Below are positions 1,747 to 46,471 of a stretch of 64,000 bases of DNA, in pieces. Location of the stretch: sequence record MZ892903.1. One strand, given 5' to 3'. The translations under genes were made by a program, and so were the position numbers. Numbering within the stretch: position 1 is the stretch's first letter; each line of letters opens with the position of its first letter. Under the pieces are notes generated by a model. That model was given only the letters and a program-made list of their open reading frames with translations, did no database searches and was not told where the DNA came from. This DNA is from Escherichia phage ELT1.

Positions 1747-3204
1747 ATGATTGAATTAAAAGAGTTACCTTTTGTTGATAGCGTTCCTGGCGAAGGCCAG
1801 GAACGTATTTCATGGATTAAAAACGGTGAAGAAATATTAGGAGCTAGTACTAAGTATGGAAACGATGGATCAATGAATAGACCAACTGTTTCCCTGTTTA
1901 AAAATGTTGAGGTTCTTGACGAAAATATAGGAATTCTTAAAACAGCATTAGAAACATCCCAGGAAGATATTAAAACCATTCAGGGTATCTTAGATGTATC
2001 TGGTGATATAGAAGCTTTATCGCAAATAAGTATCAATAAAAAGGATATCACTGATCTTAAAACGCTTACGAGTGAACATACCGAAATATTAAATGGAACT
2101 AATAATACTGTCGATAGCATTCTTGCTGACATTGGTCCATTTAATTCGCAAGCAAATTCAGTTTATAGAACGATTAGAAATGATTTGTTATGGATTAAAA
2201 GGGAATTAGGACAATATGCTGGGCAAGACATTAACGGTCTTCCTGTTGTAGGAAATAGCAGCACGGGTATGAAGCACCGCATCATTAATAATACAGATGC
2301 TATAACTTCCCAAGGAATACGTCTAAGTGATTTGGAAGAAAAATTTATTGAATCTGATGTAGGTTCACTGACAATTGAAGTCGGAAATCTTAGACAAGAA
2401 CTTGGACAAAGACCATCTTCATTCAGTGAAAGCATATATTCACGTGTTCATAATTTAGATCAATCGCAGATTAATCTTAGTTCCGAAATTAAATCTATCA
2501 AAACTTCTATTGGATATCCAGGAAATACTTCAATAATCACAGATGTTAACACTAATACACGAGAAGTTTCAGCTTTAAATGATGAACTAAATAAAAGCGG
2601 AGGTATTAAACAACGATTGACTGTCATTGAAACGTCAATTGGCTCAGATGATATTCCTTCTAGTATTAAAGGTAGAATTAAAGATAATACCACATCAATT
2701 GAGTTTTTAAATGGAATTGTTGGTGAAAACACTTCATCTGGACTACGAGCAAACGTTTCATGGCTAAACCAAATCGTTGGAACTGATTCTAGTGGAGGTC
2801 AGCCTTCTCCTCCTGGGTCTCTTTTAAATAGGGTTTCAACAGTTGAAACTTCAGTTAATAGACTGAACAATGATGTTCAAAACTTACAAGTTGAAATTGG
2901 TAATAACACTGCTGGAATTAAAGGCCAAGTTGTTGCACTAAATAAACTAGTAAGCGGCACAAATCCAAATGGTTCAACAGTAGAAGAGCGCGGATTAACT
3001 AATTCAATAAAGGCTAATGAAACTAACATTTCTTCTATTAATCAAGAAATGCGTAGTATTAAAAGTAATGTATCTTCATTACAGGGGGATGTTCAGACTT
3101 TACAGGAAGCAGGTTATATTCCTGAAGCTCCAAAGGATGGTCAAGCTTACGTTCGTAAAGACGGCGAATGGGTATTACTTTCTACCTTTTTATCACCAGC
3201 ATAA
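1747..3204 (+). CDS. wac: fibritin (whisker/neck fiber)
   Basis: 485 aa, heptad-rich coiled coil, C-terminal foldon motif [27 protein letters not shown]. Confidence 0.95.
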
Positions 3205-3207
3205 CAT

Positions 3208-3223
3208 GGGGCCGCAAGGCCCC
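3208..3223 (+). terminator. GC-rich GCAA-tetraloop hairpin after wac (RNA hairpin; weak terminator, no T-run)
   Basis: ggggcc-gcaa-ggcccc immediately after wac stop. Confidence 0.4.
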
Positions 3224-3235
3224 AAAGGATTTTAA

Positions 3236-4937
<1,702 letters not shown>

Positions 4938-4978
4938 TAAATATTATAAACTAATTAAAGCCCAGATTAGGAGAAATC

Positions 4979-31308: not shown

Positions 31309-32273
31309 TGTATTCTTTAGAGGAATTTAATAATCAAGCAATAAACGCAGATTTCCAACGTAATAATATGTTTAGCTGCGTTTTTGCAACAACTCCATCA
31401 ACTAAAAGCTCTTCGTTGATAAGTTCAATTAGCAACTTTTCTTATAATAACTTGGGCCTAAATTCAAATTGGTTAGGATTAACCCAAGGTGATATTAATC
31501 AGGGAATTACCACGCTAATTACAGCTGGCACACAAAAACTGATAAGAAAATCAGGGGTTAGTAAATATCTTATTGGTGCCATGAGTCAACGTACTGTCCA
31601 GAGTTTATTAGGCTCATTTACAGTTGGTACATATTTAATTGACTTCTTTAACATGGCATATAACTCATCTGGATTGATGATATACTCTGTAAAAATGCCA
31701 GAGAATAGATTATCCTATGAAACTGACTGGAACTATAATTCTCCTAATATTCGTATAACTGGGAGAGAATTAGACCCTTTGGTTATTTCATTTAGGATGG
31801 ATTCAGAAGCTTGTAACTATCGTGCGATGCAAGACTGGGTTAACGCTGTTCAAGACCCAGTAACTGGATTGCGTGCTTTACCACAAGATGTCGAGGCAGA
31901 TATTCAGGTTAATCTTCATGCTCGTAATGGATTACCTCATACTGCTGTGATGTTCACCGGATGCATTCCAGTGTCAGTGAGCGCTCCTGAGTTATCATAT
32001 GATGGAGATAACCAAATAACTACATTTGATGTTACTTTTGCGTATAGAGTCATGCAGTCTGGGTCGGTTGATAGACAAGCTGCGCTTGAATGGCTTGAAT
32101 CTGCTGCCATAAACGGTATTCAAAGCGTTCTCGGAAATAGTGGAGGTGTTACTGGACTATCTAATTCGCTTTCACGACTTAGTAGACTAGGAGGAACCTC
32201 AGGAAGCATTTCAAACATTAATACTATGACGGGAATTGTCAACTCGCAAAGTAAAATATTAGGAGCAATATAA
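31308..32273 (+). CDS. 54: baseplate-tail tube initiator gp54
   Basis: 321 aa. Confidence 0.9.
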   Translation: MYSLEEFNNQAINADFQRNNMFSCVFATTPSTKSSSLISSISNFSYNNLGLNSNWLGLTQGDINQGITTLITAGTQKLIRKSGVSKYLIGAMSQRTVQSLLGSFTVGTYLIDFFNMAYNSSGLMIYSVKMPENRLSYETDWNYNSPNIRITGRELDPLVISFRMDSEACNYRAMQDWVNAVQDPVTGLRALPQDVEADIQVNLHARNGLPHTAVMFTGCIPVSVSAPELSYDGDNQITTFDVTFAYRVMQSGSVDRQAALEWLESAAINGIQSVLGNSGGVTGLSNSLSRLSRLGGTSGSISNINTMTGIVNSQSKILGAI

Positions 32274-32277
32274 CAAT

Positions 32278-32307
32278 GGGGACCGAAAGGTCCCCATATT
32301 TTTATTT
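32278..32307. terminator. bidirectional terminator between gene 54 and the convergent minus-strand 96-aa ORF
   Basis: ggggacc-gaaa-ggtcccc hairpin plus T-run. Confidence 0.7.
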
Positions 32308-32592
32308 ACGGAATGAAATAAAAGCAGCAACTGAAGCAACTAAACTGTCTTCAATATAAACTTCAATTTTTACCGGAGCTTCTGACTCAAATTTACCTGT
32401 TACTACACCCTGAAAAATAATTTCAGTCTGTTCTGGCTTTGAAAAATTTTCAGAAGGAAAAATTCCGAACTTTTTATCTGTTCCAAAAATTTTAATAAAT
32501 TCATCGTAAACCGCTTCGTTAAAAGCATTATCAGCAGGAATAACGCCTTCAACTACAAGTTCTTGACCTAAAAAGCGTAAAGAAGATTTCAT
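32302..32592 (-). CDS. hypothetical protein (region corresponding to T4 alt.-x ORFs)
   Basis: 96-aa ORF with GAGGA SD supplied by the 54-bp repeat. Confidence 0.6.
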   Translation of the reverse strand: MKSSLRFLGQELVVEGVIPADNAFNEAVYDEFIKIFGTDKKFGIFPSENFSKPEQTEIIFQGVVTGKFESEAPVKIEVYIEDSLVASVAAFISFRK

Positions 32593-32599
32593 TTTGTGT

Positions 32600-32653
32600 T
32601 CCTCATGTTATGTCAGTAAGTCTACTATAACACAACACGAGGGACTTGTAAAC
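32600..32653 (-). repeat. 54-bp perfect direct repeat, copy A (early promoter + leader + SD cassette)
   Basis: Identical to 46418-46471; on minus strand reads GTTTAC-18 bp-TATAGT ... GAGGA. Confidence 0.9.
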
Positions 32654-33010
32654 TACATTTTGAACTTTTTAGTACGCGTAATAGGCATGCGTCGATTTTA
32701 TACTGTTTCATTGTTTGAAGAGCAGTATCAAAAACAGCATTAATGACACCAATTGGATTTCCACCCAAGTTTTTAAGTTTAACTAATGATAGTTTCTCAT
32801 TAACACCTATCATTACGATATGCATCATTTTATCGCCTGGCTTAACGTTTTATCTGTATCATCGCCAGAGGTGTATGTACAAAATCTAAATCCAGGAAGC
32901 ACGCTTTCTTCGCCGGCTTGAATAGCAAAAATTTGTGGTATTTTATGCTTAGGATTTAAGTTAACAACCGGCGCCGAAGCGCCGTCAAATAATTATGTAA
33001 TAAGTTCCAT
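32625..33010 (-). pseudogene. decayed tandem duplicate of the alt 5' region (alt N-terminal paralog remnant)
   Basis: Starts 3 nt after alt stop with ATGGAACTTATTACATAA (MELIT-stop; alt has MMELITELFD); DNA and protein similarity to alt codons 1 to about 117 with a frameshift; includes the 67-aa ORF 32625-32828, which matches alt residues 64 onward. Confidence 0.75.
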
Positions 33011-33013
33011 GAT

Positions 33014-35110
33014 TTATCCTTGAACGAACTTGTAAGGCATGTTTGCAATATCTATGCAAGATGCAATAATTCCAAGAGATGATTCTACTTTTTGTTTAAC
33101 ATTTGATGAAACAAATGATGCAAAGTCAACTCTGTCTTCTATTTCAATATCACCTGTCATTGCAACTACTTCACCAGTTTCCATTAGACGGTCACCGTCA
33201 TAAATGACTGATTCGGTGAGTTCTTCCGTAGTCATAACTTCAGCTTGAATGAGTTTTGTATTATTAGATGTTGTTCCGTCATTATTAGAAGCATCAGTTA
33301 TTTTATTAACTTTGACCATCAATCCACGTGGTAGAATAACTTCAGCTTCTGTTGCTATTCCGAGACTTCCTGGATATACAACATTAACTTTATGAGCTCC
33401 ATCAATTGCCCATCCTATTTGAACTTTAACGTATTCAGGATTTTCTTTATACGCTCTTATTTCGTTTGGATTAATAGTTATTCCTTCTTCATTTTTATCA
33501 ACTGTCAATTCATTACGAGCTTCTGGTTCTAAAAGACCGATACCAGCATGTGTAATTCCAAAACGTCCAAAAATGATAGGAGTTAAAGAAGTAGATACAA
33601 AATTTCTGAAATAGAACACTTTATTTTTAACTAGCGCTTCGTATATAGGAGCAGTCATACTTTGAGCACGATAAACTGTAATGCCTTCTGGTATACGGTC
33701 ACCATTTTCAAAAGCTGAATCTAAATTATTTATCGCAGATTCAATTTCTTTTTCACTCATTACATCATATCGTGCTGGATTGTAGCGGCCTAAAAGAAGA
33801 TTATTGATGTCAGTATATCCTGAACCGCAATATTCTCTAATGCCACGCTTTTGTGATGGAGTATATTTAGAACCATCGCGGGCAATAGTAATATCAATCA
33901 TTGGACCAGCACCAATTCCAGAAAAGCTATAAATCATTCGTTTGAGGAATTTAGTTTTTGCTGCATTCCAGGCATTTTTAGTTATTTCTCCCCAGACTTC
34001 ATCTGATTGCCCTTTACGAGTTTTATTATGTTTATCAAGCCAAGTATCTTTATATTCTTCAAAGAATTTATTAATAGCTGCTGCATACTTCTCTAAACAT
34101 TTTATTGAAGTAGTTGGTTCATTTTTAATCGCATTAAGAATTACATCTTTAATTTTTTCAGAAACTTCACCAACCTCACTCATTGGAAAGAATTTATAGT
34201 CATAATGAAGTTCATCTGCAGTTCCTTCAGCAATAATTTTTGCTGCCTTAGTTTTAGAAGCTAATGAATTAATTCCAAGCTTCATTTCTTCTGCTTCGGG
34301 AATTAAAGGAGCTGTAGCAGGTTTATTGAAATTAGCTGCGGTAGATTCATATTTCTGGAATAATTCGCTTTCATTACGATAAGATTCTAACGATTGACTT
34401 GCCGCAATTGCTCTACGTGAAATTTTAACTTTAACGATTACAGCTTGGTCAGAACGTTTATCATTTTCTTGCGCAATAGATGCTGCAATTGCCTCATTTT
34501 TAGTTACTTGAGCTCCAGTATCTTTATTGATATAAACATCACCGACCTTCGATTCAACCTTAGTAAAGAGCTCGGTACTAATTTCCGGAACTCCTGGAAT
34601 GTCTTCTAGTGATACATTTTTGCGATGTATAAGAATATATGCATACTTTTTATCATAATCCCAGAGTTCCTTAAGAAGGACGTATCTGCCACCTGAACGA
34701 CTACGGATAAGTCTATCAGCAATAACTTGAATTTGTCGAGCTTGACCAGCGGTTTTAGACTTAAGAATACGAAGCATACAAGCATCAATTTTATACTGAC
34801 GCATCGTTTGCATTGCAACAGTAAAAACCGAATTGATATAATTAATTGGGCTTGGACCAAGACCTTTCAATTTAGCAATTGAACCTTTAGCGGTTAATGT
34901 AAAAGGAACAATATGCATCATTTTATCGCCCATCTTTAAATCACGATTAGTATCACCTCCAGATGTATAGGTACATAAACGAAAGCCCGGTTGTTCAATT
35001 GCATCATCAACATGAACTGAAAAAATTTGCGGTATTTTCTTCTTTGGATTTAAGTTTGTAATTGGAAGAGTAGTATCTTCGTCAAATAATTCTGTAATTA
35101 GTTCCATCAT
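33014..35110 (-). CDS. alt: ADP-ribosyltransferase Alt (packaged internal head protein)
   Basis: 698 aa, T4 Alt-like, late promoter immediately upstream. Confidence 0.85.
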   Translation of the reverse strand: MMELITELFDEDTTLPITNLNPKKKIPQIFSVHVDDAIEQPGFRLCTYTSGGDTNRDLKMGDKMMHIVPFTLTAKGSIAKLKGLGPSPINYINSVFTVAMQTMRQYKIDACMLRILKSKTAGQARQIQVIADRLIRSRSGGRYVLLKELWDYDKKYAYILIHRKNVSLEDIPGVPEISTELFTKVESKVGDVYINKDTGAQVTKNEAIAASIAQENDKRSDQAVIVKVKISRRAIAASQSLESYRNESELFQKYESTAANFNKPATAPLIPEAEEMKLGINSLASKTKAAKIIAEGTADELHYDYKFFPMSEVGEVSEKIKDVILNAIKNEPTTSIKCLEKYAAAINKFFEEYKDTWLDKHNKTRKGQSDEVWGEITKNAWNAAKTKFLKRMIYSFSGIGAGPMIDITIARDGSKYTPSQKRGIREYCGSGYTDINNLLLGRYNPARYDVMSEKEIESAINNLDSAFENGDRIPEGITVYRAQSMTAPIYEALVKNKVFYFRNFVSTSLTPIIFGRFGITHAGIGLLEPEARNELTVDKNEEGITINPNEIRAYKENPEYVKVQIGWAIDGAHKVNVVYPGSLGIATEAEVILPRGLMVKVNKITDASNNDGTTSNNTKLIQAEVMTTEELTESVIYDGDRLMETGEVVAMTGDIEIEDRVDFASFVSSNVKQKVESSLGIIASCIDIANMPYKFVQG

Positions 35111-35130
35111 ATCCTCTCTAGTGTTTATTC

Positions 35131-35138
35131 TATTTATA
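35131..35138 (-). promoter_or_regulatory. late promoter core TATAAATA (minus strand) upstream of alt
   Basis: plus-strand tatttata; 21 nt upstream of alt ATG. Confidence 0.55.
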
Positions 35139-35158
35139 AATTAAAGGCCCGAAGGCCT

Positions 35159-35347
35159 TTAATAATCTAATGGTAAGAGAGTACGATATATTTCAAACTT
35201 TGGCCCTTTTTCATAGGCATCAAATGTTTCTGTAAATTTATTATAAGCGTATGCATCTACAAATTCGAGAATGACTTGTGATACAGAAGTAGAAACATCT
35301 CCACCTTCTTTTTGAGCAATGACAATTGTTTCTAAGTAAGCTTTCAT
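35159..35347 (-). CDS. hypothetical protein (T4 alt.1-like position)
   Basis: 62-aa ORF between gene 30 and alt. Confidence 0.55.
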   Translation of the reverse strand: MKAYLETIVIAQKEGGDVSTSVSQVILEFVDAYAYNKFTETFDAYEKGPKFEIYRTLLPLDY

Positions 35348-36807
35348 AGACCAGTTACCTCATGAAAATCACCAAATACATCCTCGAACGTATTAGCTTT
35401 AGTTTTATCTTCGCGTAAACGAATCGCAATCGGAAGAAATAATTTAACGTAATCAGTGCGGCCATCAGATTTTAACCAACCGTTGCATTCGCACTCTAGA
35501 ATTTTTCCAATATAATAATTTTGGTTTTCCATAATGCGAGTACGGTCAAGTTCATGCGATTTTACACCGGCTTTATCTTTTAAGCCTGAACCAGCATTTA
35601 CCTTAATTTTTCCACACTCTGACTCAAGAATAAATCCACCTGCTTTAGTAGGGTCTTTACGGTGAGGATAAATTCCTACAATTTTTAAATCAACATCAAT
35701 TACTTCTTTAAATTTATAAAGATTTTTTGAACGGGCATTTTCCCATAACCCATCAACGTTTTTGAGAATAATACCTTCAAGACCTTGGTCAATATACTTT
35801 TTATAAATTACCTTGGCTTCGTCTAGGTTATTTACTACCTGGTTTTCAATTAAAATTACTTTATCATATCCTGATGTCATTTGTTCTAGTTTAGAAAAAC
35901 GTACATCATATTTTAAACGAAACGTCGGAAGACCGTATATTTCTACCAACGGAACATAATCCCAGACCTGAAACTTCATGCATTGAGCTTCTTTTTCAGA
36001 AATGGTTCCCTTTAAAGATTTATTAGCGATTCCATTAGAAGTAGTACGTGATTCAGCTACTTCGGCGAATTCTTTGGCTTTACTAATTTCAGGATAAGCA
36101 TCAAAAAGAAAATCTAGGCCTTCTGGCTCCTTTTTAACTTGCTCATGGTATACCAATTCGCCATCAATTAACACGCCTTCTGGATGAATCTGGCGGGCTT
36201 CTGCAGTCATTTTGATTAATTCTTCCTTAAGAAGATCTAATCCTAGATATTCATTACCGGCTCGTGATAAAAGACGAACATCATCTAATTCATCACCTCT
36301 GACTTCGGCAAAGCACCGAGCCCCATCAGCTTTTAACTGGGCAAAGGCTGGAAACTTGATATTCTTACTAATGCCTTTTTCATCATAAGAACTTGCCAGC
36401 ATTTGAGGTTGTTCAGGAATTAAACCTGGCCAAACTTTGTTTGCAATAGATACTGAAGCACCGCATTCAAGGTCTCGCATCATCACCCGACGCAAAACTT
36501 CAACATCATCTTTTTTACCATCGGTGATATATCCAGTTAATTCCTCAATTGCTGCATTTCCAGTCAATTTCCGAGTAGCTAATGTGAATTCAATGAAGTC
36601 AAGCATATCGGTAAGAGTCAACATTCCAAAACTCTGGGTAGCAATACCAGGTTTAGGCCATTTCTTGATATAATACTGCAGCCCACGAGAATAAGTCAGA
36701 CGATATACTCGTTTAAGCAATTCATTATCTTTATTCTTTTCAAGAATTGCTTGCTTCTGCTTAGTTGAACCAATAGATGCTATTTCGTTCAGAATTTTAA
36801 GAATCAT
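35344..36807 (-). CDS. 30: ATP-dependent DNA ligase gp30
   Basis: 487 aa, active-site motif KADGAR. Confidence 0.95.
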   Translation of the reverse strand: MILKILNEIASIGSTKQKQAILEKNKDNELLKRVYRLTYSRGLQYYIKKWPKPGIATQSFGMLTLTDMLDFIEFTLATRKLTGNAAIEELTGYITDGKKDDVEVLRRVMMRDLECGASVSIANKVWPGLIPEQPQMLASSYDEKGISKNIKFPAFAQLKADGARCFAEVRGDELDDVRLLSRAGNEYLGLDLLKEELIKMTAEARQIHPEGVLIDGELVYHEQVKKEPEGLDFLFDAYPEISKAKEFAEVAESRTTSNGIANKSLKGTISEKEAQCMKFQVWDYVPLVEIYGLPTFRLKYDVRFSKLEQMTSGYDKVILIENQVVNNLDEAKVIYKKYIDQGLEGIILKNVDGLWENARSKNLYKFKEVIDVDLKIVGIYPHRKDPTKAGGFILESECGKIKVNAGSGLKDKAGVKSHELDRTRIMENQNYYIGKILECECNGWLKSDGRTDYVKLFLPIAIRLREDKTKANTFEDVFGDFHEVTGL

Positions 36808-46417: not shown

Positions 46418-46471
46418 TCCTCATGTTATGTCAGTAAGTCTACTATAACACAACACGAGGGACTTGTAAAC
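46418..46471 (-). repeat. 54-bp perfect direct repeat, copy B (early promoter + leader + SD cassette upstream of alc)
   Basis: Identical to 32600-32653. Confidence 0.9.

Follow-up and report, generated by a model that had tools for sequence, protein, structure and literature searches.

The alt-like remnant of a T4-like phage is very probably the 5′ stump of a second Alt-type ADP-ribosyltransferase gene

The DNA that directly follows alt in the window (the whole stretch of 64,000 nucleotides that was analysed) is, with little doubt, a pseudogene: the 5′ stump of a second Alt-type ADP-ribosyltransferase gene, which most Tequatroviruses still carry at full length, head-to-tail behind alt. Comparison with these relatives indicates that an ancestor of the phage carried the paralog intact, at 2058 nt. 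Recombination or replication slippage at two CTAAAAAGT repeats, 1699 nt apart, removed codons 114-679, taking the catalytic domain, leaving one CTAAAAAGT copy and an out-of-frame join, and sparing the last 20 nt of the gene together with the alt.-3 early promoter that overlaps the paralog stop. The stump then drifted, with the loss of one A from an A5 run splitting it into the ORFs known in T4 as alt.-1 and alt.-2, and this lineage in addition gained GAA>TAA at the Glu of MELITE, after which only a pentapeptide could be made from the original start. We infer that the remnant has no protein function, and that the paralog was dispensable and lost by neutral drift or by headful genome-size pressure. 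As a pseudogene the remnant is ordinary and already known; what is refined here is its origin, by deletion from an ancient full-length paralog, and since RefSeq already labels the long form "Alt-like", this carries little weight as a discovery.

An alt-like remnant between alt and alt.-3

The window DNA is that of a Tequatrovirus (T4-like phage). A megablast search with positions 32200-35400 matched 544 phage records, with Escherichia phage JEP6 at the top (99.3% identity over the full length), and many of the top matches were split in two pieces, spanning about 4.9 kb versus 3.2 kb. Genes on the minus strand are ordered DNA ligase (gene 30), alt.1, alt, remnant and alt.-3, with gene 54 convergent from the other side. 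The intact upstream partner in the tandem pair is alt itself (33014-35110, minus strand), which encodes the packaged ADP-ribosyltransferase of 698 aa and is identified by its ORF, by matches to PF03496 (ADPrib_exo_Tox, E = 5.7e-37) and phrog_802 (Alt-like), and by its annotation in relatives. The 3′ limit of the locus is set by the intact downstream neighbour alt.-3 (32302-32592, minus strand), a 96-aa DUF5498 ORF recognised by PF17602 (E = 1.5e-63) and by the T4 annotation.

The remnant occupies 32653-33010 on the minus strand and starts 3 nt past the end of alt. After the TAA that ends alt (33014-33016) come ATC and then ATGGAACTTATTACATAA at 33010-32993, which reads MELIT-stop, exactly the restart that the original prediction had described. 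Local DNA alignment of the remnant with the 5′ end of alt scores 102, against 20.5 +/- 2.2 (maximum 30) for 200 shuffles, and a repeat search independently recovered the remnant/alt pair at a spacing of 2093-2097 nt. The similarity is far above chance, which bears out the claim of an alt-like copy directly after alt. Its degree had been overestimated: nucleotide identity, put at 75-80% by eye, was measured at 65% (64.8%, 219/338) to 67%. Similarly, what had been taken for a 4-nt frameshift resolves into one in-frame 3-nt gap, which is also present in the intact paralog, and a single 1-nt deletion in an A-run.

The first part of the remnant (32825-33010, minus strand), covering paralog codons 1-61, is equivalent to T4 alt.-1, on the basis of alignments to Shfl2 and T4, the T4 annotation and a match of phrog_23015 to the paralog N-terminus. 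The nonsense mutation noticed earlier at codon 6 is present as GAA>TAA (32993-32995); it hits the Glu that ends the MELITE propeptide and closes the frame, which is further shifted by one A lost from the A-run (A5) at about 32849-32852. The second part is contained in a 67-aa ORF (32625-32828, minus strand; phrog_15247, E = 8.8e-50), the equivalent of T4 alt.-2, made up of paralog codons 62-116 and a 12-residue out-of-frame tail, SKCSLQVPRVVL. As had been proposed, this ORF aligns to Alt, matching residues 64-118 ungapped with 34/55 positions identical (62%, E = 1e-21), so that the pairwise comparison suggested earlier is significant for DNA and protein alike. A Pfam search with the 67-aa ORF gave no domain match.

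The remnant is homologous solely to the N-terminal region of the Alt-type family (PF03496/phrog_802), and the ADP-ribosyltransferase catalytic domain with its R, S-T-S and E-x-E motifs is absent from it, falling within the 1699 deleted nucleotides. A frame that starts at the MELITE propeptide is interrupted three times, by the TAA at codon 6, the 1-nt deletion and the out-of-frame 1699-nt deletion. In Alt, the 7-residue N-terminal propeptide is cleaved off by the gp21 prohead protease (PMC9026906). The conceptual translation of the remnant shares with T4 Alt, a packaged mono-ADP-ribosyltransferase injected with the DNA, the MELITE propeptide and about 62% of N-terminal residues; in contrast to Alt, the remnant lacks the catalytic domain and cannot encode an enzyme, and at 65% nucleotide identity it is a paralog rather than a copy. 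A PDB sequence search with Alt returned weak matches only (E about 0.005), to the catalytic domains of CdtA and an iota-like toxin, none of them covering the N-terminal region that the remnant represents.

Inspection of the T4 ORFs between gene 54 and alt, one of the checks proposed at the outset, revealed the counterpart of the remnant. T4 alt.-1 and alt.-2 (NP_049810 and NP_049809; T4 123065-123450) lie at the same site, 3 nt past the alt stop and before alt.-3, on the same strand and in the same order, and are 97% identical to the remnant (328/338), with the same 1699-bp junction, CTAAAAAGTTCAAAATGTAG, and the same A-run frameshift. T4 Alt.-2 and the window ORF are equal in length at 67 aa. 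The difference lies in the first part: T4 alt.-1 has 61 aa, whereas the window has MELIT-stop (GAA>TAA at codon 6) together with the missense changes G50D and N53D, so that the T4-type pair of short ORFs (61 and 67 aa, with a frameshift between them) is incomplete, its 61-aa member being cut off at codon 6. The remnant is a more decayed allele of the T4 alt.-1/alt.-2 locus, with a TAA found in 8/12 of the truncated copies sampled. According to T4 RefSeq, alt.-1 and alt.-2 [quoted passage not shown]; they have been listed as paralogous (partial) duplications of alt (Nolan et al. 2006, PMC1524935), and PHROGs holds them as families of unknown function (phrog_23015 and phrog_15247). Annotation would be improved by treating the "hypothetical proteins" Alt.-1 and Alt.-2 of these two families as fragments of one deleted gene.

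The full-length paralog and the deletion junction

Other phages do keep a second intact alt paralog at this place, as the original prediction had asked. In the Shigella phage Shfl2, a complete second ORF of 685 aa begins 3 nt past alt (2058 nt, positions 2892-4949 of the Shfl2 locus, L001; YP_004415089), and is annotated as "Alt-like RNA polymerase ADP-ribosyltransferase". A 685-aa ORF likewise lies 3 nt past the alt stop in T2 (YP_010073850), RB32, RB68 and JoYop, T6 also carries the full-length paralog, and elsewhere the gene is annotated as "alt.-2". Counting records with at least 80% of the full-length paralog, we found it in 402 phage records (about 400 of some 500 Tequatrovirus records), while the deletion junction occurs in 90, T4 included, which makes the truncated state a minority allele at about 18%. 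An IMG/VR search with Alt.-3 gave 5 loci, and the population survey was instead sampled from GenBank phage records. More distantly, the T4-like phage 44RR has a full-length tandem alt duplicate, and RB49, 44RR and T4 carry partial ones (Nolan et al. 2006, PMC1524935); the presence of a full-length duplicate in 44RR indicates that the alt duplication is old.

The paralog and the Alt of the window are 41% identical end to end (E = 4e-155), with the N-terminal ~235 residues conserved, the middle diverged and the catalytic region conserved, and the paralog retains the catalytic motifs YR.Q, FVSTSL and EAEVILPRG (PF03496, E = 3e-20). Since it keeps both the MELITE propeptide and the catalytic motifs, the paralog is probably packaged and injected like Alt, and its central region, which is unlike that of Alt, suggests different targets. 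If so, injection of two distinct Alt-type enzymes is probably the rule among T-even phages, and the second of the two is unstudied; we found no literature on it beyond genome annotations. Laboratory T4 represents the minority state, as it lacks this uncharacterised, probably injected enzyme that about 80% of its close relatives carry.

Alignment of the window with Shfl2 resolves the remnant into the first 339 nt of the paralog, minus one base, and its last 20 nt. The alignment falls into three blocks, which pair window 33060-32852, 32851-32673 and 32672-32282 (all minus strand) with Shfl2 L001 2842-3050, 3052-3230 and 4930-5320 at 97.1%, 98.3% and 95.4% identity, respectively. Overall, the first 339 and last 20 nt of the full-length paralog (T2, T6, RB32, Shfl2) are 97-98% identical to the remnant and share its position and flanks; unlike the remnant, the paralog has 1699 extra nt (the middle region and the PF03496 domain) and no nonsense codon or frameshift. 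The 1699 bp missing from the window are bounded in Shfl2 by 9-bp direct repeats, CTAAAAAGT, at L001 3231-3239 and 4930-4938 (break points ...CGCGTA|CTAAAAAGTAAAAC... and ...GGAATGT|CTAAAAAGTTCAAG...), of which a single copy survives in the window at 32664-32672 (minus strand). The repeat pair is present in Shfl2, T2, RB32, RB68, JoYop and one UViG, and the junction is identical in 12/12 truncated copies sampled.

With repeats at both ends in the undeleted allele and one copy in the deleted one, the event has the form of a microhomology-mediated deletion. In T4, deletions and amplifications between microhomologies of 6-10 bp, with a single copy retained, are documented, as is the loss of alt under genome-size pressure (Srikant, Guegler and Laub 2022, PMC9391042, which cites earlier work on such T4 events by Wu et al. 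1991). Those deletions resemble the one described here in having a short direct repeat at the ends, in keeping one copy and in removing non-essential accessory DNA, with deletions of the alt region among those reported; they differ in being laboratory events followed in real time, whereas the window deletion is a natural allele found in ~18% of sequenced relatives. The locus thus offers a clean natural case of T4-type deletion at 9-bp repeats, followed by stepwise decay.

Past the surviving repeat, the last 11 nt of the paralog (..TTC AAA ATG TAG; 32653-32663, minus strand) can be recognised by comparison with the right junction in Shfl2, with the former stop TAG at 32653-32655. Since 1699 cannot be divided by three, the paralog frame is lost at the junction and continues as LKS-SKCSLQVPRVVL-stop, exactly the end of the 67-aa ORF, whose tail crosses the former paralog stop and extends as far as the -10 box of the early promoter for alt.-3. 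Homology to alt therefore ends at LKS (about 32664-32672), at the deletion junction, and not at the start of a 54-bp promoter cassette as had been supposed, the cassette lying 11 nt further on.

Decay, selection and competing readings

We compared 12 truncated and 7 intact copies in one alignment of 19 sequences. The 1-nt loss from the A5 run was found in 10/12 truncated copies, being absent from fPS-90 and PTE-Eco15, and the GAA>TAA change at codon 6 in 8/12, being absent from T4, BGP and two metagenomic contigs; an exact 60-mer with the TAA was found in 44 records. In fPS-90 (L014) and PTE-Eco15 (L015), at about 2720-3110, the same junction and the TAA at codon 6 occur without the A-run frameshift. 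Among the copies sampled, TAA and frameshift are seen in all four possible combinations, which implies recombination or recurrent mutation within about 150 nt. The 67-aa ORF is intact in 9/12 of the truncated copies sampled, and one more has an in-frame 9-nt deletion; the private lesions within it are a 1-nt loss in PD112, a 7-nt duplication in HY03 and the 9-nt deletion in F1.

Over the first 113 codons, the ratio of synonymous to nonsynonymous variants is 31:1 in the 7 intact copies versus 17:9 in the 12 truncated ones (Fisher p = 0.003), where one of the 9 nonsynonymous changes is the nonsense codon and the 19 sequences are related and recombining, so that the counts are not independent events. 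Despite this non-independence the direction is clear, and points to an intact gene under constraint and a drifting stump. In this small sample, the excess of nonsynonymous and frame-breaking changes relative to the intact orthologue is what relaxed selection on the remnant would be expected to produce.

Neighbour-joining trees of the 339 nt place the truncated alleles in two haplotype groups. One, with fPS-90 and PTE-Eco15, falls among the intact copies of T2 and RB32 and resembles these to within about 20 nt of the junction, and the other is T4/JEP6-like. That two haplotype groups share one junction could be due to recombination or to a repeated use of this repeat pair in a second deletion. 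The paralog contains roughly ten other repeat pairs of 9-10 bp, so that repeat length alone fails to explain recurrence at the CTAAAAAGT pair. A different loss is seen in Escherichia phage sutha (PV245934; L020 4498-4520), where a 1951-bp deletion between AAGTTCGT(T/C)CAA repeats, running from AAGTTCGTTCAA at the alt 3′ end to AAGTTCGTCCAA inside the paralog, leaves an alt that ends ...KFVQ-stop and the last roughly 120 nt of the paralog; this distinct deletion implies that the paralog has been lost at least twice independently. From the same junction on two haplotype backgrounds and the separate event in sutha it could be argued that loss of the second packaged Alt paralog is recurrent and adaptive, rather than neutral, a reading that we regard as improbable. 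Were it true, the injected enzyme could be selected against in some hosts, for instance where a defence system detects it; alternatively, the stump, with its Shine-Dalgarno sequence, MELIT mini-ORF and UUCG hairpin, could be co-opted as a 3′ stabiliser or coupling element of the alt mRNA.

A good deal less likely is that the 67-aa ORF (Alt.-2) is a retained, functional mini-protein that might hinder or aid the packaging of Alt, or contribute to host takeover. The ORF is uninterrupted in the window, in T4 and in most truncated copies, forms a PHROG family of its own (phrog_15247), represents a conserved N-terminal segment with 62% identity to Alt, and lies on the transcribed strand downstream of a predicted late promoter; in T4 its start codon and the stop of alt.-1 overlap in an ATGA, an arrangement that would permit coupled translation. 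Yet the frame is broken in PD112 (-1) and HY03 (+7) and shortened in F1 (-9), the missense changes G83S and F111L occur in truncated copies only, at positions where the intact copies are invariant (the exception among these being K80R), the last 12 residues are accidental read-through, the upstream ORF that would provide coupling is closed by the TAA in the window, and the ORF has no Pfam domain.

We give very little credence to the view that the tandem duplication took in no more than the 5′ part of alt and that point mutation then eroded the copy to about 65% identity. Its appeal is that only the 5′ part is visible within the window, and that the T4 GenBank notes quoted above are phrased similarly. 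Against this, a full-length paralog whose 5′ end matches the remnant (97% identity) occupies the same position in 402 records, the remnant retains the last 20 nt of the full-length gene past the junction, and the 1699-nt segment of T2 and Shfl2 aligns to Alt throughout. Nor does the divergence from alt, at roughly 35% of nucleotides, measure decay, as the original prediction had taken it to do: the 5′ end of the intact paralog (Shfl2) is about as far from alt as the remnant (66.7% versus 64.8% nucleotide identity), the remnant is 97% identical to that paralog, and the 31 synonymous and 1 nonsynonymous variants in the N-terminal 113 codons of the paralog indicate divergence under constraint, so that nearly all of it predates the truncation. 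The earlier idea of a head-to-tail alt duplication followed by decay hence survives in so far as the region is a non-functional relic of such a duplication, with the whole gene rather than its 5′ region having been duplicated; and the decay is genuine in the nonsense codon, the 1-nt frameshift and a few missense changes, the truncation itself being one clean 1699-bp deletion.

Least credible of all is the reverse order of events, with the short form as the ancestor and the long form derived from it through a 1.7-kb insertion into alt.-2, a reading taken in the GenBank entry for RB32 ("apparent insertion in alt.-2; similar to alt"). The "inserted" segment runs collinear with residues 119-695 of Alt, catalytic motifs included, so that the note has the polarity reversed. 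An insertion would have to restore exactly one long frame, duplicate a 9-bp target and revert the 1-nt A-run frameshift; the C-terminal tail of the short form is out-of-frame read-through into a promoter; and a tandem duplicate of alt at full length is also present in the more distant 44RR (PMC1524935).

Transcription and neighbouring genes

Some 20 nt ahead of the alt start codon is a late-promoter motif, TATAAATA (35131-35138, minus strand), which, from its match to the T4 late-promoter consensus, is the likely promoter of alt. A terminator search on the minus strand from 33013 to 32297 found no terminator-like site; the first is the hairpin at 32276-32297, a bidirectional terminator between alt.-3 and the convergent gene 54, identified on both strands and annotated at the same place in fPS-90. 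With no terminator between the alt stop and this hairpin, the remnant should be transcribed late, as the 3′ trailer of the alt mRNA.

Within that putative trailer, the centroid fold contains a CGGCGC-UUCG-GCGCCG hairpin (32969-32984, minus strand), 26 nt past the alt stop and within codons 9-14 of the paralog and remnant. The hairpin also occurs in the intact paralog and not in alt, and is invariant in 19/19 of the remnant and paralog copies compared, an invariance that carries no statistical significance on its own. It is the sole stable element in the fold of the first 80 nt of the remnant, whose overall z-score of -1.0 is unremarkable. As a speculative function, it might serve as an mRNA 3′ stabiliser. 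An Rfam scan of 32200-33200 gave two sub-threshold MicX matches only (18 and 16 bits; gathering score 75), attributable to chance.

Downstream of the remnant lies a 54-bp cassette that combines early promoter, leader and Shine-Dalgarno sequence (GTTTACA-17 nt-TATAGT ... GAGGA; 32600-32653, minus strand), identified as a promoter-like site and as an exact repeat. The promoter-like site itself (32652-32624; TTTACA-17-TATAGT, 10/12 matches, with TG) is predicted to drive alt.-3, and since the right end of the deletion falls 11 nt upstream of the GTTTAC element, alt.-3 expression would have been spared. Insertion of the cassette was considered as the cause of the homology end and rejected, as Shfl2 has the cassette at the same place after an intact paralog. 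An exact second copy is found at 46418-46471 (minus strand), for which 0/100 shuffles gave a match, and sits between an rnlA-like ORF of 386 aa and an alc-like ORF of 168 aa. The cassette looks like a shared, possibly mobile, early-promoter unit. Mutations that extend the C-terminus of alt.-3 allow T4 to escape the CmdTAC defence system (PMC11618068); in the window, alt.-3 has its usual 96-aa length.

In the RefSeq entry for HY03 (NC_031047; L011 1-2712), the alt annotation is confined to a C-terminal fragment of 214 aa, the remainder being covered by several small ORFs on the opposite strand, which may reflect frameshifts or sequencing errors within the alt of that record. The alt gene itself falls into two length classes, 2049 nt in T4, PD112, F1, fPS-90, PTE-Eco15 and JoYop versus 2094 nt in this window, JEP6, slur14, BGP, Shfl2, T2, RB32 and RB68. 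Length class does not track the intactness of the second paralog, which indicates that alleles in this region assort independently.
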